NCBI GenBank assembly: GCA_030619865.1
Contig: JAUXAP010000003.1
Span: forward strand, 135-64,134
Direction of reading: 5' to 3'
Source: Dehalococcoidia bacterium
Lineage (GTDB): Bacteria; Chloroflexota; Dehalococcoidia; Dehalococcoidales; JAUXAP01
Length of the DNA: 64,000 nucleotides
Shown here piece after piece: positions 1-50,381 of the stretch. The notes beneath the pieces are model-generated. The model was not told the origin of the DNA. It was given only the letters and a program-made list of their open reading frames with translations, and did no database searches. A program made the position numbers and the translations under genes. Within the stretch, counting starts at the first letter, position 1, and the number at the start of each line of letters is the position of its first letter.

Positions 1-215
1 CCTGACCTCACCCCAATGGGTTGGGATTGGGTGTCGAAAAGTTGGGGTGCCACCACTCCGATGTCGATAAGAGTAGTGAAAGAATTATCGACTGGCCTGG
101 CTAAACTAAGTCAGCAGAGGTTAGCCAGGTAAGATAAAAAGAGTTGACTAAGCTTGTAGTATATTCTGGACAGCTTCTTCTGGACGGGGAGTTCAACTCT
201 CCCCCGTCTCCACCA
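1..215 (+). ncRNA. ssrA: tmRNA (ssrA), 3' portion; 5' part lies upstream of the window
   Basis: 181-215 reads GGACGGGGAGTTCAACTCTCCCCCGTCTCCACCA: T-arm (GGGAG/TTCAACT/CTCCC), acceptor 3' strand and encoded CCA. No matching tRNA 5' acceptor strand or D/anticodon arms in the preceding ~80 nt, as expected for the tRNA-like domain of tmRNA. No credible ORF in 1-190. Confidence 0.7.
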
Positions 216-1773
216 GAAACACGGACGAGTCTTGAAAAGGCTCGTTGATGATATAAATCTTAGACCCGGTACGGGCCGCCGCCACCCTGAAGATTGGTCT
301 GAAGAGTGGTTTTGGTTTTATGGCAACAATCGATTTCATCTTCTTCGCATCGACATATACCGCATCCAGCATGGAGAGAAGGAATTTTCTTCTCTCTTCC
401 TGATTAGCCTTGGTCCACAACATTGGCAGGTCAAGAATAAGCTTCCCAGCTTCTTCCGCAGCATCGGCTTGAGGTACTATCAGGGATTCAAGTTCCATTT
501 CCAATAGCTTCTTTTTCCGGTAGTACTCCCCGTCAGGGAAAACTCCGTCAATATATGCCTTTGCCATCCGGCGAAGTTTTTCTTGTGCGTTTTGTCGCTT
601 CCTGCTTATCGTCTCAACTTCATCCTTCAGGCTAATAATAGTCATTACCTCTTCTAACCATCGGGGTCCTAACTCAATAGCTTCAATCAAACCGGTAATC
701 TGATTATCAATGATAGAACAGGTAATTGAACCACCACCAGAGCATATGCCATGACTTCTTGAGGCTTTATGCTCTCGGTAGAAAGGTCTGCCGCTCTTAT
801 AAGTCTGCGCCCACATGGGCATTCCGCAGTAGGCACACCTCACTATTCCTTTGAGCAGGTAATACCTTTCCGGGCGAACCTGAAGGGTCTCAGACCGTCC
901 ACTGTTCTTCTTCAGCGTAATCTGCACAGTCTCATAAATATCCGCACTAACCAGTAGTTCATGAAGTCCAGGGAAAAGCTTCCCCCGATGGGTTATTTTT
1001 CCTGCGTAGAAAGTATTATGTAAAATACCTCTCACGGATGCTGTGGTAAACAATCGCGGACCTGATGTTATATTACCCGCTGCATCTAGAAGCTGATGCA
1101 TGTTTCTCGTCCGGAATCCCTGTCCATTAAGCCAACCGGCAAGTTGACTGAGTGTCGTATTCCCTACGGCATATCTCTGGAATAATTCAACTACTGCACT
1201 ACCCTCTTTCGGGTGTACGTGGATCCCACCAGGATGCTCTGGTTCGCACTCTTGTTTCCGGTTACCTTTTTTACCTGTCCAGCAGGATTCATAACCGAAA
1301 GGAATACCGCCAGTATGTTTACCTTCATGGGCCCTCTGTTCCAATCCCTTACTGACGTGATTAGCCAGAGCGCCAGAGAAATATTCAGCAAATGAGCCGA
1401 TCATCTGGGTAAACAGCTTGCCCTGAGGCGTGGTGTAATCTATCTTTTCGGTGATGGATACCAGCGATACATTGTGTTTAGCCAGGATTGATAAGGATTC
1501 CATAGTTACTTTCATGTTCCGTGACCATCTGTCCAGAGTATGAACGATAACCGCATCAAACCTGTCTTTACTGGCATCATCAAGGAGTTTTTTAAAAACA
1601 GGCCGGCGGGATATGGCCTCGACGTGGGCTGACCTGCCTTCTTCCCGGTAAACTCCAATCGGTTCCCAGTCTCTGTTCTTGCAGAGATTCTGAAATAACC
1701 GTTCCTGTGCATCCAAGGAATGCCCTTCCACCTGAGAGAGACTGGATACCCTGATGTAGGCAACGGCTCTCAT
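193..1773 (-). CDS. large serine recombinase (phage-type serine integrase)
   Basis: 526 aa. N-terminal resolvase catalytic domain (MRAVAYIRVSSLSQ), central recombinase domain, Cys-rich zinc-ribbon segment (CAYCGMPMW...C) and long helical C-terminus. Stop codon lies 23 nt inside the ssrA 3' end. Confidence 0.9.
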   Translation of the reverse strand: MRAVAYIRVSSLSQVEGHSLDAQERLFQNLCKNRDWEPIGVYREEGRSAHVEAISRRPVFKKLLDDASKDRFDAVIVHTLDRWSRNMKVTMESLSILAKHNVSLVSITEKIDYTTPQGKLFTQMIGSFAEYFSGALANHVSKGLEQRAHEGKHTGGIPFGYESCWTGKKGNRKQECEPEHPGGIHVHPKEGSAVVELFQRYAVGNTTLSQLAGWLNGQGFRTRNMHQLLDAAGNITSGPRLFTTASVRGILHNTFYAGKITHRGKLFPGLHELLVSADIYETVQITLKKNSGRSETLQVRPERYYLLKGIVRCAYCGMPMWAQTYKSGRPFYREHKASRSHGICSGGGSITCSIIDNQITGLIEAIELGPRWLEEVMTIISLKDEVETISRKRQNAQEKLRRMAKAYIDGVFPDGEYYRKKKLLEMELESLIVPQADAAEEAGKLILDLPMLWTKANQEERRKFLLSMLDAVYVDAKKMKSIVAIKPKPLFRPIFRVAAARTGSKIYIINEPFQDSSVFLVETGES

Positions 1774-1967
1774 TAATCTATTTCCTTTTCCTTCCTTAAA
1801 GCTATCGATAAGGAGATATCGGCTAGAGTTTCCAGGAATGTCTTTATCATCAGTTTATCTACCTCACTTGGTTCCGTCTCCGTTGTGGCGGACACTGTAT
1901 ACGCTTCGTGTATACCCGTCAACACGTTTTCGTCTGTTTTGGGAGAAATATTTTCCAAACCAGTCAT
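1773..1967 (-). CDS. hypothetical small protein
   Basis: 64-aa ORF whose stop overlaps the recombinase ATG by 1 nt (TAATG), suggesting coupling. No recognisable motif. Confidence 0.4.
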   Translation of the reverse strand: MTGLENISPKTDENVLTGIHEAYTVSATTETEPSEVDKLMIKTFLETLADISLSIALRKEKEID

Positions 1968-2035
1968 TTCTTCCTCTCCGAATCATTGATAAGACGAAGG
2001 AGAGTCGCGTATCCAATGTCCAGTTCCTTTGCGGC

Positions 2036-2584
2036 CTAGCTCCTTGATATATTCCCTAGCTGTAATCGCTCCAAAACTACTCCAAAACGCGGTTTGAAGC
2101 CTCGCCTATCCATTACCCTTGGTCGACCGATTTTGTGCCCCATTTTTCTCGCTCTGTCCATACCCGCCTTTACTCTTTCTCTTAAGATTCCTCTCTCCAG
2201 TTGAGCATAGGCAACGGTAATGTAATAAAGAGCTTCTCCGAAGGGAGAAGTGGTATCAAGCCAAGGTTCGGAGTAAGATCTTAGGCCAACTTTCCATGAT
2301 CTTATTCTCTCTAAGGTAGTCGCGGCATCCAGTACCGACCGAAAGGCCCGGTCCATTCTCCATACCAGAATAAGGTCGAACTTCCTGTGACTGGCGTCGT
2401 TGAGTAAATCCTTCCAGGCATACCGATGAGTAATGTCTGTCGCTGAGACGTAGTCGATATATTCCCGGAAGATTATCCCGCTGTCATGGGCATCGACGAA
2501 CTCTCGCATCGGCATGAGCTGAGTCAAAGGATTTTGCTCCTTATCCGATGTCGATACTCGGGCATAGATGCCAAACTTCGTCAA
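2036..2584 (-). CDS. small serine recombinase (resolvase/invertase family)
   Basis: 182 aa. MTKFGIYARVSTSDKEQ catalytic-Ser motif, resolvase core, GRPRV linker followed by a short C-terminal HTH-like tail. Confidence 0.85.
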   Translation of the reverse strand: MTKFGIYARVSTSDKEQNPLTQLMPMREFVDAHDSGIIFREYIDYVSATDITHRYAWKDLLNDASHRKFDLILVWRMDRAFRSVLDAATTLERIRSWKVGLRSYSEPWLDTTSPFGEALYYITVAYAQLERGILRERVKAGMDRARKMGHKIGRPRVMDRRGFKPRFGVVLERLQLGNISRS

Positions 2585-2603
2585 TTAGTACCACCTTTCA
2601 TAT

Positions 2604-3074
2604 TTATAACTTCCTCTTTTCTTCATTGATCAGTTTTATCAATTCCTGTTCACGTTCACGGCTCTTTACTATCTCTGTCCATTCATTCTGTAATTTACTG
2701 ATACGTTCAGGCAGCTGGTGAAACGTCTTTATCGTTGTCTCCAGCTTATCAATGAGTTCTTTACACGTTGCTTCTGTCTGTTCTCTTATCACTTTCAGCT
2801 GGTCGTATTCCAAAACGAATCGGCTCTTACCATGACTGATCAGTTTTTTTATATTCAGATTAGTGAAGATCAGTCCGGTAAGTGACGGTAATACCTCAAT
2901 GCCGTAATCTTTAATAGCTCTATTTGCTATCTGACCGGCAGTTGCCCGGATAATTCCTTCCAAGGCTAATGCGCAGGCAGCCTGTACTAACACCAGTTGT
3001 ATCTTCAATTCTTTAAGACCCCTGTTGGTTGAATTCCCTATAAAAATATTTAAGATGTCATCTGTTTGCTGCAT
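2604..3074 (-). CDS. hypothetical protein, helical/coiled-coil C-terminus
   Basis: 156-aa ORF in the same-strand gene train. No family recognised. Confidence 0.45.
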   Translation of the reverse strand: MQQTDDILNIFIGNSTNRGLKELKIQLVLVQAACALALEGIIRATAGQIANRAIKDYGIEVLPSLTGLIFTNLNIKKLISHGKSRFVLEYDQLKVIREQTEATCKELIDKLETTIKTFHQLPERISKLQNEWTEIVKSREREQELIKLINEEKRKL

Positions 3075-3152
3075 TTAATGTTGGTCCTCTCTTTTTCTGT
3101 ACTAGTACTACAATATATATGTGCGTTGTCGTCGTTGTTGTTGTATTCACAC

Positions 3153-3353
3153 CTACCCACTACCTATACCCGTACCCTGTAATGGCTGTTCCTCCAGTAT
3201 TTTCCTTACATAGGTCTGATCAGTAATGAATCCCCGGAAATGCCTGCCATCTTTTCCGCATACCAGCATGATGAAGAGTTTATTACTCTTCCTTCCCTTT
3301 GCTATCCTTACCGATAAGGTATTTGCACATATGGGACAGTTAATCTCCTTCAT
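3153..3353 (-). CDS. small zinc-ribbon protein
   Basis: 66 aa with CPIC...CGKDGRH. Its start overlaps the upstream ParB-like stop by 4 nt. Confidence 0.5.
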   Translation of the reverse strand: MKEINCPICANTLSVRIAKGRKSNKLFIMLVCGKDGRHFRGFITDQTYVRKILEEQPLQGTGIGSG

Positions 3354-3985
3354 TCTATTTCCTCCCTCTCTAAATAGAATTTACATAGCAGATACATTGC
3401 TGTACTCCTGGTATTAGGACTCTTAGCTTTATCATCTCTAGCTTTGGGTAGTATCCGGCTTAATGCCTCTTCCACCGTTTCGAGTTGTTTGTTAGTGAAC
3501 TGTAATACCATGTGCTTTAGCTTGGCAGCTTGCGACTGTTCCCACGCCTGCAGGTGCTCGGCCAAATCGGATTGATTGAAAGATGCCAGAGATCTCAGGC
3601 TTTCTGTTGTTTCCGGAAGGAGTGAAAGTACTTTATCTTCCGGAATAGATGCGAGGATATTCCTGAAGAGTGCTCCCTTTTGTGCCTGGTCATCTTCTCC
3701 ATGAATCCCGTTTAATGTTTGTGCCAGCAGCATCGATTCGGCATCGTTTAAATTGACTACTACACATGGAACCACACTGAATCCCATGTTCCTTATTGCC
3801 TTTAACCGGTGGTTACCGGAAAGCACCTCATAGAATGCATCATCTTTTGGCCTTACTACCAGAGGTTCCACCAAACCGTATCGGGAAAGGCTCTCGATGA
3901 GACGACTGAGTGTTATATCGTCCATATGGTTTGGATTCCAGGGGGCTTCGTTAAGTCTCTCGATCGGTAGTTCATTTACTTTCAT
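3350..3985 (-). CDS. ParB N-terminal (ParB/Srx-fold) nuclease-like domain protein
   Basis: 211 aa. N-terminal pattern PIERL...NPN...LVEPLVVRP...YEVLSGNHRLKA typical of ParBc domains. 4-nt overlap with the upstream ORF. Confidence 0.75.
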   Translation of the reverse strand: MKVNELPIERLNEAPWNPNHMDDITLSRLIESLSRYGLVEPLVVRPKDDAFYEVLSGNHRLKAIRNMGFSVVPCVVVNLNDAESMLLAQTLNGIHGEDDQAQKGALFRNILASIPEDKVLSLLPETTESLRSLASFNQSDLAEHLQAWEQSQAAKLKHMVLQFTNKQLETVEEALSRILPKARDDKAKSPNTRSTAMYLLCKFYLEREEIE

Positions 3986-4674
3986 TTCTTCTCCTTCTTC
4001 GGATACGGTAATATCTTTGTGGCCAGTCTCTTTCTGTAAGATGGATCGAGAAAATAAATATATCTGTGTTTACGCATTTGGGGCACGATTCTTACTGTTA
4101 ATCCGTAAGACTCAAGGTGTTTCAAGGAATGAGTTCCATAGGAATGGCTGAGACTCCTTGAGTGCCTTACCTTGCCGTCTCCCAAATCAAACATAGGCAT
4201 AGCTCCCGACAGTCCGGTATAAGTCCAACCGGAGGCCTGGTATATCGTACCCACGTGTCCCAGTGTTGGGTCAGCATAGGAGACGACAAATCTAACCATA
4301 GTGTTTTTCTTTAAAGCTCTTAGACAGATGGCAATTACTCTGGATTCGGAATTGGTCGGCAATTTATCAGAAAGCCAGAACCGGGTCAGTGTCAGACAAT
4401 CACTCTGGAATGCCCCCTCAATCAATCTGTACGCGTTATGCGGTCCGACTCCAAAGGTTATGGCACCCAGCAGTTTTCCATTAGTTAAAGCACCAAAAGT
4501 TAGTTTGGTGCCTCCAGGAATAGAATGCAGATAGTGGTGTTTTTCAATTAACTTTTTGGCTGCAATAAAAGGAATGGGTTGAATACGAATAGATTGGAGC
4601 GCCGTGCTGGGACTCGAACCCGCTCCTGCTTCACGGATTGAAGCTGTGCTTACTCTTACACCGACGGCGCTCAT
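3982..4674 (-). CDS. Mom-family GNAT-fold protein (putative DNA adenine modification enzyme); start uncertain
   Basis: Motif string KHHYLHS..GAITFG..LTRFW..NSESR..VSYADPTLGHVGTIYQASGWTYTG matches my recollection of Mom-like acyltransferases. The ORF is open to 4791. ATG 4674 is chosen as the nearest ATG, although family homology starts only near 4585. Confidence 0.6.
   Translation of the reverse strand: MSAVGVRVSTASIREAGAGSSPSTALQSIRIQPIPFIAAKKLIEKHHYLHSIPGGTKLTFGALTNGKLLGAITFGVGPHNAYRLIEGAFQSDCLTLTRFWLSDKLPTNSESRVIAICLRALKKNTMVRFVVSYADPTLGHVGTIYQASGWTYTGLSGAMPMFDLGDGKVRHSRSLSHSYGTHSLKHLESYGLTVRIVPQMRKHRYIYFLDPSYRKRLATKILPYPKKEKK
4596..4672 (-). ncRNA. tRNA-like element (non-canonical cloverleaf, 9-bp acceptor helix)
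   Basis: Minus strand: GAGCGCCGT CG GTGT AAGAGTAA GCAC A GCTTC AATCCGT GAAGC AGGA GCGGG TTCGAGT CCCAGC ACGGCGCTC C. Canonical T-loop and a perfect 9-bp acceptor. The anticodon loop lacks U33, the T stem has a bulged A, and there is no CCA. Confidence 0.35.
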
Positions 4675-4834
4675 TTTCCCACAACCCATTTTTTTGTTAT
4701 ACTCATTTGCGTATAGTATAAAGGCAGGTTTTTTAGTCGTGTGGGCATGTTTTCGCCATAACATAGACAGAATTACGCAAATTTCTGCCATTCTGGCTTC
4801 AATTTTTATGCGTCAATGCGGAGGGTATTGACAG

Positions 4835-5398
4835 GTGAAAAGAAACCAAGCCATAAAGTTCTGGAATGCTCTTGATGCCAGTACTAACATCAATGAGGTC
4901 ATTAGCAGTTTTGAGAATAAACATGGATATGATGGCAAACGGACGTTACAGCGATATACTCAAGCACATAAAGGATTCAGACAAGGCCTCTCCCTTCAAA
5001 ACATATCCTCTAAGACAGGATGGGGTAAATCATTTGTCGATAAACTTGAAGGATGGTGGAAAGGTGAGTTTACTCCACTAGCTAATACTCCAAGAAAAAC
5101 AAACGGTGAAGTTTTTTCAAATTCTCAAGAAAGATATTCGGAGGAATGGAACCATTACCACAAAATCAAAGAATCTATAATCAGGTTACAACATCCTTCA
5201 GGTATCAAGATAAGAGAACTTTTAGATATTATCGAGAGAGAACGCGTGACTTTAGATGATTCTAAACTTCAGAATGACTTGGATGAATTTATAGCAGCTG
5301 TACAAGAAAGTGTAGACCTCTATATGAGTATTCCACCAATCACGCAAGTAATTAATCGAACAAGTAGACGTATGAACAAGCGGTATCCAAGAAAATAG
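4835..5398 (+). CDS. hypothetical protein (possible HTH segment LSLQNISSKTGWGKSFVDKL)
   Basis: 187-aa ORF with a GTG start 9 nt after GGAGGG. Divergent from the minus-strand operon. Confidence 0.5.
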   Translation: MKRNQAIKFWNALDASTNINEVISSFENKHGYDGKRTLQRYTQAHKGFRQGLSLQNISSKTGWGKSFVDKLEGWWKGEFTPLANTPRKTNGEVFSNSQERYSEEWNHYHKIKESIIRLQHPSGIKIRELLDIIERERVTLDDSKLQNDLDEFIAAVQESVDLYMSIPPITQVINRTSRRMNKRYPRK

Positions 5399-5604
5399 TA
5401 CTCATCTTGATTGAATGTCAAATCCATACTTTTCATTCTTAGCTTTCACTTTCTCCAAAAGGGTTATGTCTTGTTGACATTTAATTATGGGTATATAATC
5501 ACCTTAACTAAAAAGACTTCCTTCTGGAAGTTCCAGTATAATCGTTCCCTTTTTAAGAGCTTGTTAACGATTGTACCTGAAGGTATAATTACTGGTAAGA
5601 CAAC

Positions 5605-6045
5605 ATGATTAAACGTTATGAACACACGCAGGTTGGTTATCTAATCATCGTGGCGATGGCAGCCGTGATGGTGTTGATTGGGGTTGTCCTGGCCAATGTT
5701 GGCATCAATTGGATTGCTATCGGTGTCTTGGTTGTCATTGCGGTAGCCTTAGTATTATTTTGCAGCCTGACCGTGGTTATCTGGGAAGATGAACTTGAAG
5801 TGCGATTCGGTCCTGGGTTAATCCGCAAACGGTTTAAGTTGAACGAGATAGAATCGTGCCAAGTTGTTAAGAATCCTTGGTACTATGGATGGGGCATTCG
5901 CTTGACACCTCACGGTATGCTATTCCGCGTATCCGGCTTTCACGCTGTCCAGATCAAACTTAGAACGGGTAAGAAGTTTCGAATTGGTACGGATGTCCCA
6001 CAAGAGCTTGAGGAAGCCATTAGGCAAGCCATAAATTCTCGCTAA
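5605..6045 (+). CDS. membrane protein, two N-terminal TM helices plus small soluble domain
   Basis: 146 aa. Hydrophobic stretch YLIIVAMAAVMVLIGVVLANVGINWIAIGVLVVIAVALVLF. TTGACA promoter-like box near 5480. Confidence 0.55.
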   Translation: MIKRYEHTQVGYLIIVAMAAVMVLIGVVLANVGINWIAIGVLVVIAVALVLFCSLTVVIWEDELEVRFGPGLIRKRFKLNEIESCQVVKNPWYYGWGIRLTPHGMLFRVSGFHAVQIKLRTGKKFRIGTDVPQELEEAIRQAINSR

Positions 6046-6070
6046 AGTAATTACTTTCCACATAAACCGA

Positions 6071-6100
6071 AGGTCACTGGTTCGAAGCCAGTCTCCACTA
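6071..6100 (+). other. tRNA/tmRNA 3'-end-like fragment (candidate distal att remnant)
   Basis: ACTGG TTCGAAG CCAGT CTCCACTA: T-arm plus acceptor-like strand, no 5' half upstream. Shares GTCTCCAC with the ssrA terminus. Confidence 0.35.
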
Positions 6101-6111
6101 CCCTGATTTGA

Positions 6112-6522
6112 CTAAATATTTAGGGTAGTATTAATGAATCTGATGATAAAGACAAACCCTGAAAATACCCACAAGATACTCTGACTTTTAATCAGGGTGT
6201 CACAGGTTCGAGACCTGTACGGCCTACTCTCAATCCCCTCTAACTCTTCTAACGAATGTCTAACCAATGCTTTCTCGTCCTGTTTTTGTGATGCTTTCTC
6301 TAACATCAAATCCATCGTATCCGCCGGGGCCCGTAGATCGCCCTCCCAGTGATTGTAGACGGTGAGGGTCACCATTTCACTGGCATGTCCAAGCACTCGG
6401 CTGATAACTTCTATCGGCTGTCCGGCTTTACGCTGCAGTGTGGCGTAGGTGTGCCGTAAGTCGTGTAGACGGATAGGCTTTAGCCCTGTATTCTGGACAA
6501 CCCTCTTAAAAACCTTGGCCAT
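6112..6522 (-). pseudogene. tyrosine recombinase/integrase, C-terminal catalytic fragment only
   Basis: Begins ...IRLHDLRHTYATL...VLGHAS...TVYNHW (R, HxxR and Y motifs) but lacks the ~200-aa N-terminal part. The frame runs on through the tRNA-Lys fragment. Confidence 0.7.
6180..6226 (+). other. tRNA-Lys(UUU) 3' fragment (anticodon arm to discriminator)
   Basis: TCTGA CTTTTAA TCAGG GTGTC ACAGG TTCGAGA CCTGT ACGGCCT A. No D arm and no 5' acceptor strand upstream. Confidence 0.6.
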
Positions 6523-6526
6523 ATTA

Positions 6527-6558
6527 GTAGGGGTGGGAAATTAATCTCCCACCCCTAC
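6527..6558. repeat. perfect 12-bp inverted repeat hairpin
   Basis: GTAGGGGTGGGA aattaatc TCCCACCCCTAC, directly at the break point of the truncated integrase. Confidence 0.8.
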
Positions 6559-7060
6559 TTTCGTACCCGGCCCTACCGCTAAGCCCGATTACAGCTGAGG
6601 CTTTCCGCACGGGAGGGGGGAGAGGAACATTTAAGCTGGTGGGCTAGAATAAATCCCCCAACGCCCTGGTTTCCCCCGACAGGACCAGCCTACAGTCTAG
6701 TTTTTACATCTATGCTACCTAGAAAAGCCGAAGGGCTCAAAGACACACCCACACTTTGGCTCTGAGCCCTTTTATTTGACTTATCTTCAGAATTGCTTTA
6801 GAATAGAAACAATTAGAAAATATCGTTACTTTTCACTCCCAGGAAAGGCCTGCCCCAACAGGTCTTTCCTTATTTAACCTTCTTTTGTTCCCTTTCAATC
6901 TTCTCGTCTATTGTCTCCTCAAGCCACTCTCCCAACGTCTTTTTTGAACGCAGGGCTTCTACCCGAGCTTTGTGGGGAGTGTCTGAATTTATCTTCATAT
7001 TGCGGAGCTTTCTAATAGGCTTTTCATTCAGCAGACTTACCACAGTTTATATAGGTACTC

Positions 7061-7090
7061 TTCATATAGAGACTATTCATATAGAGACTA
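7061..7090. repeat. tandem direct repeat 2 x 15 bp
   Basis: TTCATATAGAGACTA TTCATATAGAGACTA, followed by the hairpin TACTACA gcaagag TGTAGTA. Confidence 0.85.
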
Positions 7091-7357
7091 CTACAGCAAG
7101 AGTGTAGTACTAAATAATAGTATTGTCAACCTTCTGTGTAAAAATATTATCTAGTTGACTGCTATGCTGATGCTGGGAAATATGGAGAAGGCCAGGGAAT
7201 ACGGTGAGAGAGCCTACTTGAGCTTCTTTTGTAGCTTGCATTCCTTTCAACCTGGTATTATTATGGCATGAAACAGGGGATTTGCAGGCACCTAGCTTAA
7301 TCCAGTTAGAAATGAAAGGGAATCTAGGAATCGCTGGCGGAGCCGAGGCCATAATCT

Positions 7358-7666
7358 ATGGACGAAGGGAAAGAATTTGAGGGTTACCTCAACGCTGAAT
7401 ACCGCCATATAGCAGAGGCACACTTCCGAACTATTGAGGCAATATCGTCTTTCTTTCGGTATTATCTGCTCATCATGTCTCTCCCCATCACACTATTAGC
7501 CCTAGCAATTGGGATATCGTCTCAATCAGATAAGGTTCTAGAAGCTATATTTAGTCTGGGGCCCCTCCTGTCCGCCGTCCTTTTCGTTATTTCAATGGTT
7601 GGCTTCGGTATGCTTCTCTACATTATCAATTTGAGAATGTACTTCGCCCTTCCCCATGCAACTTAG
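7358..7666 (+). CDS. hypothetical membrane protein, possibly truncated
   Basis: 102-aa ORF with two hydrophobic helices. Ends abruptly and is followed by ~440 nt without ORFs. Confidence 0.35.
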   Translation: MDEGKEFEGYLNAEYRHIAEAHFRTIEAISSFFRYYLLIMSLPITLLALAIGISSQSDKVLEAIFSLGPLLSAVLFVISMVGFGMLLYIINLRMYFALPHAT

Positions 7667-8104
7667 AAGCACTAGCTCGGCAAAGCCAACGCTTCTGCAT
7701 AAACGGGTATCAGTAATTTGGAGCTTGACTAAAGACCTTATCCCGGAGTAAAATTAGAACAGTCAGTTGTTTGGGAGGAGTATTATATTTCTATCAAGCC
7801 GAGAAACTAGAGAATCAATAATCAGGGGACATCCCCTGATAATTTATCGGCTTCAAGAGGATTTTAATACGCCAGAAAATACAGCAGACTTCTGGGGTTA
7901 CCGATCCTTTTGCCAAGTTGAACCCACCGCTACTTTAGCTCTACCCAGAATTAAGAGCAGACAATAAAGACACCTACTCCTCAGACATGTTCCAAAAGAT
8001 TGTTACACCAACTGGTTTATTCCAAGTTTTACAGGACATCAAAGAGGGAGCATATTTCGGCGTGATGCCTGAGAATCCCTCTTAGGATACCGTGAGGGGA
8101 GAAA

Positions 8105-10417: not shown

Positions 10418-11062
10418 ATGAGCAATGAGATTCTCGAGAGCCTAAAGAAAGCAGTAATAGAATACAATAACGAAGCAGCCACAAGGTGGGCTAGAAAGGC
10501 AGTTGAGGAAGGAGTAGACCCTATTAAGGCAGTAGATGCCCTGACCAAGGGTATCAGGCAAGTCGGTGACGGCTTTAGTCAAGGTGAGCTCTGGCTACCT
10601 GAGCTTGTTGGGGCTGCGGATGCCATGAAGAGTGCTATGCCCATTATAGAAGAAGAGATTAAAAGAAGGGGCAAGAAACGAGAAACAGCGGGTGTCATTG
10701 TGTTAGGAACGGTTAAAGGGGACATCCATGACATAGGCAAAAATCTGGTAGCTACGTTTCTGACCATTGATGGCTTCAACGTAATCGACCTTGGTGTTGA
10801 TGTTGCCGCCGAGAAGTTTATCAAGGCAGTCAAAAAGCATAAAGCTGACATTTTAGCTCTATCTGCCCTCATGACCATGACTGGCCAAGAGCAGAGAAAG
10901 ACGATTGATGCCCTTAAGAAGGAAGGTATAAAAGACAAAGTGAAGGTAATGATAGGTGGAGGAGCTATAACCCAAGGGTTTGCTGACGATATTGGAGCCG
11001 ATGCATATGACCCTACTGCCGTTGGGGCAGTAAAATTAGCCAGAAGGCTGACTAGAAAGTAA
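10418..11062 (+). CDS. cobalamin-binding corrinoid protein (methyltransferase cognate)
   Basis: 214 aa. B12-binding DxHxxG motif as GDIHDIGKNLV, followed by SALMT and GGG segments. Confidence 0.85.
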   Translation: MSNEILESLKKAVIEYNNEAATRWARKAVEEGVDPIKAVDALTKGIRQVGDGFSQGELWLPELVGAADAMKSAMPIIEEEIKRRGKKRETAGVIVLGTVKGDIHDIGKNLVATFLTIDGFNVIDLGVDVAAEKFIKAVKKHKADILALSALMTMTGQEQRKTIDALKKEGIKDKVKVMIGGGAITQGFADDIGADAYDPTAVGAVKLARRLTRK

Positions 11063-11076
11063 AAGGAGGCAATGCC

Positions 11077-12513
11077 ATGGGATTAAAAGGCTATGTAGTT
11101 AAACGCCCACTGGATATATTAACCGAGGAGGAAGTTAAGAGGATTCATTATGGGACTCTGGAGGTCATGGCGAAAACAGGAGTGGTGTTTCATCACAAAA
11201 AGGCGCTAGAGATTTTGGGTGATGCCGGTTGCGATGTGGATAGGGAGAAAGAACTGGTAAGGTTCCCCAACTATTTGGTTGAGGAATCGTTAAGAAAATG
11301 CCCCAGAAGAGTCCTTCTGAAAGGAATGACCCCGGAATATGATGTAGCAGTCGGTGACCCTTATGTGCATTTTGCCAGTTGTATTGCTATGGATACCCTG
11401 GATTTAGAGACTATGGACCGGAAGATACCAACGATGCAAGACCACATTAACATGGCCAAGGTTCTAGACTATTTAGATGAAGTTCATTTGCATTATGGAC
11501 AATATGTGCGTGCAGAAGGTGTTGCTGATATGTGTATACACCCACAGAGGTTCAATATAACAGTTAAACACGCATTGAAGCCCTCCATCACGGCCGGAGT
11601 GTTTGGCAACGAGGTATGGTTGATAAAAATGGCACAAGTCGTTGGTCAAAATCCGGCAGGGCACGCCCAGTGCTCGCCTCCACTGACATGGTCTACAGAC
11701 AAAATCGACTGTATGCTTCATTATATAGACGCCGGCTTCCCTATATTGCCGGGTACAGGTCTGGCAACAGGAATGACCAGTCCGGTGACTCTAGCCGGGG
11801 CATTAGTACAACAACAAGCCGAAATTTTATCTGGGATAGTCCTAGCCCAAACCGTCAAACCCGGGATTGGTGTCATCGTTAAAGGCCGCATAGAGCCAGC
11901 AGATATGAGAACCGGTATGATTGCTGAGGGTGGTGTGGAAAAGGTAATTGCCGATGCCGCCTGGAATCAAATCTGGCGCTGGTACCAAGTCCCCCGATGG
12001 CATACAGTTGTATCGACTGACTCAAAAGTCCCCGATTATCAATGTGGAATGGAAAAAGCACTACATTTCCTCTTGTCGGCTTTGACTGGCTCCAACATAA
12101 TTGCCGGCATTGGCGGAGTATATGATGAAATTACTGTTTCCCCCGTTGTTGCCATAATGGATAACGAACTAGCTCGCCGGATTGGCAAAATGATCGACGG
12201 GGTAAATGTAAACGAGGAAACTTTGGCCGTCGATTTGATTAACAAAGTAGGTCCGATCCCAGGTCAATTTCTCAGCACAGAACACACCAGGAAATTGTGG
12301 AAGTCGGAGCTGCTCATACCTGCTCTTGCTGATAGAATGGGCTATTCTGAATGGGTGGGGGGAGGCAAAAAAACTTCCCTTGATTATGCCAAGGAAAAAT
12401 ACGAGGAGATAATAGCTACCTATAATCCTTCCCCTTTGTCCGAAGATAAAGAGAAGGCAATAGACGAGATTATGGAAGAAGCCAGAAAGTTCTATAAGAG
12501 TAAAGAGTCGTAA
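11077..12513 (+). CDS. MttB-superfamily methyltransferase without pyrrolysine codon
   Basis: 478-aa uninterrupted ORF with trimethylamine-methyltransferase-family length and sequence character. Sits directly downstream of the corrinoid protein. Confidence 0.75.
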   Translation: MGLKGYVVKRPLDILTEEEVKRIHYGTLEVMAKTGVVFHHKKALEILGDAGCDVDREKELVRFPNYLVEESLRKCPRRVLLKGMTPEYDVAVGDPYVHFASCIAMDTLDLETMDRKIPTMQDHINMAKVLDYLDEVHLHYGQYVRAEGVADMCIHPQRFNITVKHALKPSITAGVFGNEVWLIKMAQVVGQNPAGHAQCSPPLTWSTDKIDCMLHYIDAGFPILPGTGLATGMTSPVTLAGALVQQQAEILSGIVLAQTVKPGIGVIVKGRIEPADMRTGMIAEGGVEKVIADAAWNQIWRWYQVPRWHTVVSTDSKVPDYQCGMEKALHFLLSALTGSNIIAGIGGVYDEITVSPVVAIMDNELARRIGKMIDGVNVNEETLAVDLINKVGPIPGQFLSTEHTRKLWKSELLIPALADRMGYSEWVGGGKKTSLDYAKEKYEEIIATYNPSPLSEDKEKAIDEIMEEARKFYKSKES

Positions 12514-48753: not shown

Positions 48754-48829
<76 letters not shown>

Positions 48830-48838
48830 ATAAAATAG

Positions 48839-48913
48839 GCGGAAGTGGCTCAGCGGTAGAGCATCTCCTTGCCAAGGAGAGGGTCACGAGTTCGAATCTC
48901 GTCTTCCGCTCCA
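48839..48913 (+). tRNA. tRNA-Gly(GCC)
   Basis: GCGGAAG..TCTCC TTGCCAA GGAGA..ACGAG TTCGAAT CTCGT CTTCCGC T CCA. Confidence 0.95.
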
Positions 48914-49001
48914 GCCGAAGTGGCGGAATGGTAGACGCGGCAGTCTCAAAAACTGTTGGAGGGCAACCTCCATGTCGGTTCGAGTCCGACCTTCGGCACC
49001 A
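48914..49001 (+). tRNA. tRNA-Leu(CAA)
   Basis: Class II tRNA with the long variable arm TGGAGGGCAACCTCCAT and anticodon loop CTCAAAA. Starts directly after the CCA of tRNA-Gly. Confidence 0.95.
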
Positions 49002-49010
49002 AGACTAAAA

Positions 49011-49084
49011 TGCCGAGTTGTGTAGTGGTAGCACGGGGGACTTTGGATCCCTTAGCCCTGGTTCGAATCCAGGCTCGGCAGCCA
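49011..49084 (+). tRNA. tRNA-Gln(UUG)
   Basis: TGCCGAG..GGGGA CTTTGGA TCCCT..CCTGG TTCGAAT CCAGG CTCGGCA G CCA. Confidence 0.9.
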
Positions 49085-49128
49085 GCAAACTACATAGCAG
49101 TTGCTATCGGCAAATAAGGAGGTAGCCG

Positions 49129-50241
49129 ATGACCCCACAACAGTTTCCGCTAATTTCGGTCAAGGGCAAGCCCTTTGAGTGTGGTCGGCAGCACGGTTCC
49201 CAAGCTCGGAAGCAAATACGCCAAAATGTAGACCTTTACTTTGACCTCTGGCAACAACTGTGGGGAGCCAAGCGCCCCCAAGTTTTAGAGCAATGCCAAG
49301 GTTTTATCACTGCCATCGGGGAATATGACGCCGATATCCTGGAGGAGCTGGAAGGGATAGCCAAAGGGGCGGATTTATCCCTCGAGGAAATCATAGCTCT
49401 GAACACCAGATATGAGCTAAGCCGGGTAAGAAGCTCAACTTCTCAGTCGACAAGTGATGGCTGCACCGCTATGGCTGCCCTGCCCCAGGTTACCAAAGAC
49501 GGTCATACCATCATGGGGCAGAACTGGGATTTCAAGCCCAGGTTCTATGAGACGGGCATAATCCTGGAGGTAGAACAAGAAGCCAAGCCGAACCTGATTG
49601 TCCACACCGAAGCCGGCACTATATGCCACAAGGGTATGAATTCAGCAGGGGTGGGGGTATGCCTCAATGGCCTGGCATCAAATTTGGATAGATTCGAGCC
49701 GAGGACGCCCATTCTTATTATGATGCGGGGTATCCTCAATGCAAACAGCTTTGACCAAGCACTAAAGGCAGTCCTTGGTACCAGAGCCACCGTTTCCGCA
49801 AACCTCCTCATCGCCCACCGGGATGGCGAAGCTGTTAACCTGGAGATTATCCCAGAGGATGTAGACTGCCTGTATCCGGATAACGGCATCATTACTCATA
49901 GCAATCACTTTCTGGGCTTCACCAACCGGAAAGACTTGATAGATATCGTCAAGTCATCTTCCCCCGATACCCTATTCCGTGCCAACCGGGCACGACAACT
50001 TCTAGAGTTGGACCGTGGTCACATTGATGTTGGCAGCTTCCAGCGGGTGTTTAAGGACCACTTCAGCTATCCAAATTCCATTTGCCGTCATGTAGATGTT
50101 CAGAGAAAGGAACCACAGCAGGGAGCTACTTTGGCCTCAGCAATAATAGACATGACGGAGCAAACCTTCTATTTCACTAAGGGTCCTCCCTGCCAGAATG
50201 AGTACTACAAGCTGCTGCCGCCGTGCCTGCTCAAAGACTGA
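49129..50241 (+). CDS. peptidase C45 / acyl-CoA:6-APA acyltransferase-like Ntn hydrolase
   Basis: 370 aa. Self-processing-type DGCTAMAAL motif and family-typical length. Confidence 0.7.
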   Translation: MTPQQFPLISVKGKPFECGRQHGSQARKQIRQNVDLYFDLWQQLWGAKRPQVLEQCQGFITAIGEYDADILEELEGIAKGADLSLEEIIALNTRYELSRVRSSTSQSTSDGCTAMAALPQVTKDGHTIMGQNWDFKPRFYETGIILEVEQEAKPNLIVHTEAGTICHKGMNSAGVGVCLNGLASNLDRFEPRTPILIMMRGILNANSFDQALKAVLGTRATVSANLLIAHRDGEAVNLEIIPEDVDCLYPDNGIITHSNHFLGFTNRKDLIDIVKSSSPDTLFRANRARQLLELDRGHIDVGSFQRVFKDHFSYPNSICRHVDVQRKEPQQGATLASAIIDMTEQTFYFTKGPPCQNEYYKLLPPCLLKD

Positions 50242-50305
50242 TACAGGCCATTACTTCCCTTGTCATTCAACAGAGGAGAGGTTATAATTTCTGATGGTTG
50301 CCTCA

Positions 50306-50381
50306 TTCCTCGGTAGCTCAATGGTAGAGCGGGCGGCTGTTAACCGCTAGGTTGTAGGTTCGAGCCCTACCCGGGGAGCCA
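50306..50381 (+). tRNA. tRNA-Asn(GUU)-like with 8-nt anticodon loop CTGTTTAA
   Basis: All four arms are canonical and CCA is encoded, but the stem GGCGG/CCGCT encloses 8 nt. The gene is 76 nt where this architecture predicts 75. Confidence 0.8.

Follow-up and report, generated by a model that had tools for sequence, protein, structure and literature searches.

A tRNA-Gly-like RNA embedded in the mom gene of a Dehalococcoidia ssrA island and its possible role as a private glycyl donor

A stretch of 64,000 nucleotides (nt) from a Dehalococcoidia bacterium (GCA_030619865.1, contig JAUXAP010000003.1), which we call the window and whose coordinates count from position 1, carries a module of genes beside its transfer-messenger RNA (tmRNA) gene, ssrA. 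The module is led by mom, the gene for a relative of the DNA modification enzyme Mom of phage Mu, and the beginning of this gene also holds a 76-nt element whose RNA resembles a glycine tRNA. From sequence comparisons, we lean with moderate confidence toward reading the element as a private, non-ribosomal glycyl-donor tRNA for Mom, embedded in the gene of the enzyme that it would serve. This reading is the likeliest because Mu Mom has been shown to use glycyl-tRNAGly (Gly-tRNAGly) (2023/2026).

The first gene encodes a Mom-family enzyme

An earlier note on this DNA, made from its letters alone, had read three genes as an operon for a Mom-like enzyme, a ParB-like protein, and a small zinc ribbon. 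The three open reading frames (ORFs) are indeed present on the minus strand at 3982-4791 (269 amino acids, aa), 3350-3985 (211 aa), and 3153-3353 (66 aa). They are joined by the ATGA start/stop overlaps that the note described (ATG 3985-3983 with TGA 3984-3982, and ATG 3353-3351 with TGA 3352-3350), and all of the motifs that it listed can be found in them, namely, KHHYLHS, GAITFG, LTRFW, NSESR, VSYADPTLGHVGTIYQASGWTYTG, GNHR, and CPIC...CGKDGRH. A strong Shine-Dalgarno (SD) sequence precedes each ATGA junction (GAAGGAG and GAGGGAGG), and the co-directional minus-strand cluster continues past the three genes down to 193. The first ORF does exist at 3982-4791, but its start had been over-extended: mom homologs begin MSA... 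or MTGA... at M40 of the 269-aa ORF, which corresponds to ATG 4674-4672, and by this comparison that codon is almost certainly the true start, not 4791. The public annotation of the window Mom (P0001) starts at M35.

Judged by sequence and predicted fold, the first gene encodes a genuine Mom-family enzyme, as the note had supposed, and the significant family match on which the note had staked this assignment was found. The protein matches the Pfam family Mom, PF25680, across profile positions 2-202 of 202 (E = 3.6e-62; 210.1 bits against a cut-off of 27.1), as well as PHROG 1384 ("Mom-like DNA modification protein"; E = 2.5e-53), and its sole sequence match in the PDB is Mu Mom, 8bv8 (phmmer E = 1.8e-19). 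An AlphaFold2 (AF2) model made from 31 homologs has a mean predicted local distance difference test score (pLDDT) of 76. Its top Foldseek match is 8bv8_A (E = 5.5e-15; template modeling score, TM, 0.66-0.72; 208 columns), while the next score among other GCN5-related N-acetyltransferases (GNATs) is 1e-5, about 10 orders of magnitude worse than that of Mu Mom. The model places helices 177-184 and 189-194 between late strands, which corresponds to the helical insertion of Mom. In Mu Mom, R111 and S124 are essential (Silva et al., PMC13219725, whose residue numbering is +10 relative to GenBank Mu Mom). Mu ELNRMWL...NSESR aligns with LTRFWL...NSESR of the window protein, and the equivalents of the two residues are the R of LTRFW (codon 4383-4381) and the second S of NSESR (codon 4344-4342); these are R103 and S116 of P0001, and both are invariant in the 31 homologs. 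The window Mom is about 28% identical to Mu Mom, and its closest relatives come from Dehalococcoidia and other Chloroflexota, including Dehalococcoides and Dehalogenimonas.

Mu Mom moves glycine from Gly-tRNAGly onto N6 of adenine in double-stranded DNA, and the product rearranges to N6-carbamoylmethyl-adenine (Silva et al. 2026, PMC13219725). It refuses Gly-tRNAAla and takes all three Escherichia coli tRNAGly isoacceptors (PMC13219725), and its over-expression is lethal in E. coli (PMC7261163). That the window operon writes a non-methyl modification of adenine, in line with the proposal of the note, is a reasonable inference from homology.

A tRNA-Gly-like RNA under selection lies inside mom

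The most informative feature of the locus, the embedded tRNA-like RNA, had been missed by the earlier note. It runs from 4670 to 4595 on the minus strand, begins 1 nt after the mom AUG, lies within the first 150 bp of mom, and reads GCGCCGU-CG-GUGU-AAGAGUAA-GCAC-A-GCUUC-AAUCCGU-GAAGC-AGGA-GCGGG-UUCGAGU-CCC-A-GC-ACGGCGC-UCCA. The cloverleaf has a minimum free energy of -32.7 kcal/mol (z = -3.6 versus shuffles), and in the unprocessed RNA the acceptor helix grows to 9 bp by taking in the G of the AUG. Neither ARAGORN nor Rfam called the element in the window, where relaxing the threshold added nothing but a 13-nt T-arm match to tmRNA; in several related loci, ARAGORN does report a tRNA-Gly(UCC) or an irregular tRNA at this place. 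We built a custom covariance model (R1) from 11 copies of the element. It scores the window element at 89.4 bits and finds an element by mom in most of the 80 species-representative genome loci with mom that make up our neighborhood set, with E values of 1e-9 to 1e-18.

Covariation was assessed on 58 mom-linked copies in a structure-blind MAFFT alignment. The pair cells are paired in 98.5% of cases, and 18 of the 21 pairs show compensatory double changes. The covariation score is 0.635, whereas shuffles give 0.162 and slid controls 0.14 or less, and none of 500 shuffles reaches the observed values. Because of this covariation across the 58 copies, we conclude that the RNA fold is under selection. 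The encoded peptide behaves differently. The frame in which ribosomes would read through the element varies by clade (offset 1 in 30 loci, offset 0 in 12, and offset 2 in 5), and within the Mom model the pLDDT drops below 50 only in the peptide encoded by the element (residues 1-29 of P0001), which is predicted to be disordered. Since all three frames are used and the peptide is predicted to be disordered, it is the RNA that is selected, with the peptide as a passenger.

Two sets of tRNA features have fared differently in these copies. The bacterial glycine identity set comprises U73, G1-C72, C2-G71, G3-C70, C35, and C36 (PMC9976931), and it is conserved in the element: G1-C72 is found in 57 of the 58 copies, C2-G71 and G3-C70 in all 58, U73 in 57, and U73 together with an encoded CCA in 51, while C35 and C36 are present in 58/58, so that every anticodon loop holds NCC. 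The element therefore keeps what bacterial glycyl-tRNA synthetase (GlyRS) reads. A canonical elongator tRNA-Gly engages EF-Tu and the ribosome through U33 in a 7-nt anticodon loop, T54-Psi55-C56, G18G19, and an uninterrupted 5-bp T-stem, and the element does not preserve this set. In 57/58 copies, the 3' strand of the T-stem carries an extra, bulged A, which according to work cited in PMC7826273 lies in the stretch of the stem recognized by EF-Tu. A T precedes the NCC anticodon (the U33 position) in about 14 of the 58, the anticodon loop has 8-9 nt in 25 (counted on a 5-bp stem), the T-loop has UGC in place of UUC in 23, and the D-loop GG is present in only 32 and missing in 26. The window copy has the anticodon loop AAUCCGU (A33), a D-loop (AAGAGUAA) without GG, and the bulged A in the T-stem.

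The window also contains five ordinary tRNA genes, at 48754-50381 on the plus strand (Phe, Gly-GCC, Leu, Gln, and Asn), all with an encoded CCA and without a T-stem bulge. The host tRNA-Gly(GCC), at 48839-48913, has G1C2G3...U73CCA in common with the element, and its T-stem is regular.

The RNA is linked to mom in two arrangements

Among the genome loci, the element lies at the 5' end of mom in 47 and at the 3' end in 12. The 5' loci are mostly from Dehalococcoidia and otherwise from Acetobacteraceae, Acidimicrobiales, Thermomicrobia, and Bacillota metagenome-assembled genomes, and in this arrangement an SD and ATG(A) usually abut tRNA nucleotide 1. The more distant 3' loci come from Acidobacteriota, Gemmatimonadota, Limnochordia, and Caldilineaceae; here the element begins 3-6 nt past the PYPK codons that end Mom, and none of the 12 copies interrupts the open frame. 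The 3'-embedded loci are L060-L062, L065-L067, L069, L073, L074, L076, L079, and L080 (for example, L073 6614-6689), and further loci with 3' embedding are L194, L216, L229, and L253. Altogether, the two-topology arrangement occurs in Chloroflexota, Acidobacteriota, Actinomycetota, Bacillota, Proteobacteria, and other phyla.

Seen from the side of the RNA, the linkage is exclusive. In a reverse test, we scanned metagenome contigs for the bulged 3' signature of the element and obtained at least 120 loci, 115 of them with enough flanking sequence. Among the matches listed, a Mom ORF follows directly in 104 of the 115, and in 9 more Mom is at the 5' side or outside the initial extraction window; only 2 are without a detectable Mom, so that about 98% of these signatures abut a mom gene.

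One clade of Mom proteins, in which WHYSR replaces HHYLHS, never has the element. At locus L038, the element (5473-5548) is displaced from mom (6016-6660), and there is an in-frame stop near the Mom N terminus; this locus and the six with a lost or degraded element (listed below) are natural loss variants, usable as comparative controls. Locus L018 has tandem elements at 774-849 and 873-948 before a single mom, each with an ATGA junction; of these two, the upstream one is intact (76 bits) and the downstream one degenerate (27 bits), which looks like the replacement of an old copy by a new insertion.

A proposed donor role and its alternatives

We infer the chemistry of the island Mom, the processing and charging of the RNA, its use as a donor, and the control of dosage as follows. 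By homology to Mu Mom, the island enzyme would transfer glycine from Gly-tRNAGly to adenine N6 in double-stranded DNA to give N6-carbamoylmethyl-adenine, and the modification would shield DNA from restriction, which would benefit an island that can excise and pass from host to host. The 76-nt RNA would be cut out of the mom transcript, as it must be if it is to be charged, because aminoacylation requires a free 3' end. The host GlyRS would then charge the excised RNA with glycine, the aberrant anticodon loop and T-loop and the bulged T-stem would keep it off EF-Tu and the ribosome, and Mom would use the glycylated element as a private glycyl donor. In the 5' arrangement, excision would strip the SD and AUG from the coding region, and in the 3' arrangement it would take the stop codon; because excision would remove either start or stop, tRNA production and Mom translation would be alternative fates of a transcript, and competition between these fates could limit the dose of a toxic enzyme. 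We put forward this further step only tentatively, as a suggestion from the sequence that the element is a glycyl-carrier tRNA, encoded in frame and consumed, such that each transcript gives either co-substrate or enzyme and dosage limits itself in both topologies.

Several points weigh against the donor proposal. Mu Mom works with ordinary host tRNAGly isoacceptors (PMC13219725), so that a private tRNA is not needed. Because the identity to Mu Mom is so low, the modified base could differ from that of Mu. The bulged T-stem and odd loops might hinder RNase P or GlyRS as readily as EF-Tu, and competing transcript fates leave the stop-free frame inside the 3'-embedded copies unexplained. An adjacent element is found in only 4 of 80 viral Mom loci, and six Dehalococcoidia loci have mom with a lost or degraded element (L011, L033, L036, L039, L041, and L044). 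Finally, the window island is a reduced and possibly immobile copy, because its primase gene is missing and no second ssrA repeat is detectable (see below), and it may be an immobile remnant.

Could the element act in cis instead? A tRNA mimic seated on the mom start codon, at which binding of Mom or GlyRS represses translation, would resemble the tRNA-like operator of the E. coli thrS mRNA, and it would fill the role of the Com-controlled hairpin of Mu. The geometry suits such a mimic, with the AUG 1 nt from the acceptor stem, its G paired in the extended 9-bp helix, and SD-ATG(A) abutting tRNA nucleotide 1 in many loci. In addition, Mom recognizes features of the tRNAGly acceptor end (PMC13219725), Mu Mom is toxic and tightly regulated (PMC7261163), and no Com homolog is found at the locus. 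However, a mimic leaves unexplained the 12 loci with the element at the 3' end, far from the start codon, as well as the conserved C35/C36 and the encoded 3' CCA, which matter for GlyRS charging. We consider the mimic unlikely as an account of the element, and donor and cis-regulatory roles could coexist. It is more improbable still that the Mom homolog acts not on DNA but on a substrate such as aminoacyl-tRNA, in the manner of TacT or AtaT, with the element serving as target or decoy. Two nucleotides that are invariant in the element, U73 and G71, are recognized by Gly-tRNAGly-acetylating GNAT toxins (PMC9976931), and the low identity to Mu Mom leaves room for a different substrate; yet the window protein has a full-length Pfam Mom match, the R111/S124 equivalents, and the Mom-specific helical insertion, generic GNATs trail Mu Mom by those 10 orders of magnitude, and no antitoxin-like partner was identified in the module. 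We give hardly any credence to a functionless, decaying relic, in which the ORF would have captured what was once a tRNA gene or an attachment site. ARAGORN and Rfam are silent in the window, some loci have lost the element, and automated pipelines label it a "pseudo-tRNA" (PMC3146451), but each of the four helices covaries strongly in a set that spans several phyla, the glycine identity elements do not vary, about 98% of the copies among the matches listed are linked to mom in two arrangements, and the attachment site of the island is the ssrA 3' end, not the element. The covariation excludes an origin as a relic or attachment site.

The private-donor reading joins two literatures, that of the unexplained tRNA-Gly-like gene in Dehalococcoides mom (2011) and that of the use of Gly-tRNAGly by Mu Mom (2023/2026). 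Full-text literature searches found no paper that joins an embedded tRNA-Gly-like RNA to a Gly-tRNAGly-dependent Mom; the Mu Mom paper (PMC13219725), the 2023 preprint, and the 2020 Mom paper (PMC7261163) mention no Dehalococcoides, embedded tRNA, or neighboring tRNA genes. Covariation, GlyRS identity that is kept while ribosomal features are degraded, the approximately 98% linkage to mom, and the two topologies together give independent genomic support for tRNA-dependent momylation beyond Mu. A gene that holds, in frame, the aminoacyl-tRNA co-substrate of the enzyme it encodes may represent a new principle. In organohalide-respiring bacteria, ssrA islands carry reductive dehalogenase genes. 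A restriction-evading modification could help explain how islands spread, and it could help with the delivery of DNA into hard-to-transform organohalide respirers.

The ParB-like protein and the zinc ribbon

The second protein carries the ParB N-terminal domain that the note had recognized, of a type that is also found at the N terminus of phage DNA methyltransferases. The Pfam ParB_N match covers residues 2-87 of the 211-aa protein (E = 9.9e-14; 51.6 bits against a cut-off of 26.3), and a GxxR-type motif is present as SGNHRLKA. Structure matches to ParB, Noc, and Spo0J are confined to residues ~3-100, and NCBIfam partition models match only residues ~2-105, far under the family cut-offs. The protein also matches PHROG 723, with equal likeness to the N-terminal ParB domains of phage DNA methyltransferases. 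The traits of a partition ParB were not found in it: only the N-domain matches, the GERRxRA patch is absent (there is a single Arg), and the cluster has no ParA gene. The note had also looked to conserved co-occurrence of ParB and Mom in other genomes, and ParB adjoins Mom in 51 of the 80 genome loci. In five unrelated loci (L043, L058, and L060-L062), the order is ParB and then Mom, without recombinases.

The third protein is a conserved small zinc-binding protein, as the note had held, in which C6, C9, C32, and H38 are invariant along with the motifs GRKSxKP and DGRHFRGF. The search listed 184 small homologs without a Pfam domain, the few organism-labeled ones being from Chloroflexota. The AF2 model (pLDDT 77) has long strands at 14-19 and 26-31, short strand fragments, and a C-terminal helix; a PDB fold search with this model gave no significant match, the best E being 0.28 and the hits being generic zinc ribbons such as Rpb9, Trm112, and NrdR. 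The gene follows parB in 40 loci and was seen only in the ssrA-island context. The note had implied a parallel with Com of phage Mu, and this did not hold up: hhalign gave a probability of 10% over 13 aligned columns around one CxxC, and there was no Com Pfam hit (22 members). Its gene also lies downstream of parB rather than ahead of mom.

In most of the approximately 40 module loci, the ParB stop and the zinc-ribbon start overlap, and on this ground the two genes are taken to be translationally coupled. At locus L031, both have been lost together, while mom and the recombinases are kept. The ParB-like protein and the zinc ribbon probably form one DNA-binding accessory unit. Such a unit may load Mom onto island DNA, as DpdB helps DpdA; DpdB is a ParB-like ATPase that DpdA needs to insert preQ0 into DNA (PMC10164549). 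Alternatively, it could segregate the excised circle. By analogy with DpdB and with ParB-methyltransferase fusions, the ParB-like protein may help Mom to engage DNA, and segregation of the excised circle is equally possible. For the zinc ribbon, we can only speculate about roles as a ParB partner, a recombination directionality factor, or an RNA binder.

The pair might also have nothing to do with modification and serve island maintenance, segregation, or recombination directionality, being merely co-transcribed with mom. In favor of this, the zinc ribbon is confined to the ssrA-island context with orf64 and serine recombinases (40 loci), the best matches of the ParB-like protein are partition proteins, ParB is a neighbor in just 4 of 80 viral Mom loci, and L031 dropped both genes while keeping mom and the recombinases. 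However, the adjacency of ParB and Mom holds in the unrelated lineages mentioned above, in reversed order and where there are no recombinases, the ParB domain is like those fused to DNA methyltransferases, and an ATGA overlap joins mom to parB. We regard this alternative as a real possibility, though on balance a doubtful one.

Relation to known systems

The locus is another copy of a module known since 2011, when McMurdie et al. (PMC3146451) described the "integration module" of Dehalococcoides ssrA genomic islands (ssrA-GIs) as DsiB, DsiA, a small "RecF homolog," a 210-aa ParBc protein, a 270-aa Mom, and a 700-aa primase-like protein. They reported a tRNA-Gly-like locus embedded in Dehalococcoides mom, took the role of Mom to be of the methylation type, and gave the tRNA no function (PMC3146451). 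The "undescribed configuration" of the earlier note must therefore be given up for ParB with Mom and survives only for the zinc ribbon and orf64, which are conserved here (40 and 35 loci, respectively) and were omitted from the 2011 list. Like the ssrA-GIs, the window island is inserted at the tmRNA gene, its large serine recombinase gene runs into the 3' end of ssrA, its genes follow the matching order (dsiB, dsiA, a small ORF, the ParBc protein, and the Mom homolog), and a 76-nt tRNA-Gly-like locus, whose NCC "anticodon" sits in an odd loop, lies within the first 150 bp of mom. Unlike them, the window copy is without a primase-like gene and has no detectable second ssrA repeat in the 64 kb.

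The com-mom operon of phage Mu resembles the locus in enzyme family, fold, catalytic Arg and Ser, and helical insertion, and also in a start codon that is buried in RNA structure and an enzyme that is presumably kept at a low dose. In contrast, Mu takes host tRNAGly, and its zinc finger Com unlocks translation, whereas the window locus has no Com homolog, a tRNA-Gly-like RNA inside the ORF, and a ParB-like protein, a CCCH zinc ribbon, and serine recombinases as neighbors; its carrier is a genomic island, not a phage.

The role proposed for the element has a counterpart in the non-proteogenic tRNAGly species of Staphylococcus aureus, which keep GlyRS identity, have diverged D and T arms, bind EF-Tu weakly, and feed the Fem transferases (PMC7826273). 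Those tRNAs are free-standing and form a regular cloverleaf, whereas the element sits inside the ORF of the enzyme that would consume it, with a bulged T-stem and often an anticodon loop of 5, 6, or 8 nt. For the ParB-like protein, DpdB/DpdA, DndB, and the ParB-methyltransferase fusions likewise set a ParB/Srx-fold protein beside a DNA base-modifying enzyme or fuse it to one. Unlike helpers of the DpdB type, the window ParB has GNHR, not GERRxRA, only its N-domain is recognizable, and an NTPase motif was not verified.

Layout of the island and its surroundings

The features of the module are collected in Table 1. Among the 80 genome loci, the order Mom-ParB-zinc ribbon-(RecF-like)-(DsiA)-orf64-DsiB-ssrA was seen approximately 40 times, and in many of them the tmRNA gene lies 3-5 kb downstream.

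Table 1. Features of the mom module at the start of the window
Feature	Position	Strand	Basis or remark
tmRNA gene (ssrA), 3' two-thirds, island integration target	1..215	+	Rfam RF00023
Large serine recombinase (DsiB-like), 3' end overlaps ssrA 3' end	193..1773	-	Pfam Resolvase + Recombinase + Zn_ribbon_recom
64-aa ORF (orf64), overlaps start of large serine recombinase	1773..1967	-	Conserved small protein
Small serine recombinase (DsiA-like)	2036..2584	-	Pfam Resolvase E = 2.6e-28; part of conserved order
156-aa ORF, slot named "RecF homolog" by McMurdie et al.	2604..3074	-	Variable module member
66-aa CCCH zinc-ribbon protein	3153..3353	-	Conserved C6, C9, C32, H38
ParB N-domain protein, 211 aa	3350..3985	-	Pfam ParB_N
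Mom-family enzyme, 230 aa from ATG 4674 (open frame reaches 4791, 269 aa)	3982..4674	-	Pfam PF25680
76-nt tRNA-Gly-like RNA, codons 2-27 of mom	4595..4670	-	Covariance model, cloverleaf fold

The RF00023 match scores 78.7 bits (E = 7e-29) over model positions 151-374, the window start truncating the gene, and the ssrA 3' end reads ...CCCCCGTCTCCACCA, with position 215 as its last nucleotide. The large recombinase has NCBIfam matches to the CcrB and XisF-like families and closes the conserved gene order in 38 loci. In 35 loci, a homolog of orf64 occupies the corresponding place, and searches of Pfam and PHROG gave it no family; this ORF is a candidate recombination accessory factor and is not on the 2011 gene list. 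The 156-aa ORF has no significant family in Pfam, NCBIfam, or PHROG and has relatives in only 7 loci. PADLOC found no defense-system family for Mom or the zinc ribbon and matched ParB to methyltransferase N-domains only. A scan of 1-7500 for promoters and terminators gave counts equal to the shuffled expectation, with no convincing promoter upstream of mom.

No second copy of the ssrA 3' end was found in the 64 kb, whether with the terminal 22-mer at up to 3 mismatches or with a 15-mer at up to 2, and a repeat search of 1-8000 gave only short matches at chance level. The primase-like gene of approximately 700 aa is absent upstream of mom in the window, and a divergent 187-aa ORF is there instead. 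Elsewhere, a DnaG-type primase of that size (CHC2 zinc finger, Toprim, and DUF3631) lies directly upstream of mom, at L001 3630-5657, L022 833-2998, and L034 3581-6004. In at least L022, the primase stop TGA is the TGA of the mom-start ATGA, and the tRNA-like element starts on the next nucleotide; the window keeps this ATGA though its primase gene is lost. The 187-aa ORF (4835-5398, plus strand) belongs to no known family, has relatives that are likewise divergent in L009 and L054, and may be an island regulator.

Farther from the module, a C-terminal fragment of a tyrosine integrase (6112-6522, minus strand; Pfam Phage_integrase positions 112-167 only) is followed by a near-perfect palindrome of 17+17 nt at 6526-6559. 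The two are perhaps left over from a different mobile element, and the island could end here. On the plus strand, 10418-12513 holds genes for a corrinoid protein and an MttB-like methyltransferase. Inside the MttB ORF, the Rfam pyrrolysine insertion sequence PYLIS_3 matches 12013-12112 above threshold (45.5 bits); the ORF is nonetheless listed as an uninterrupted 478 codons.

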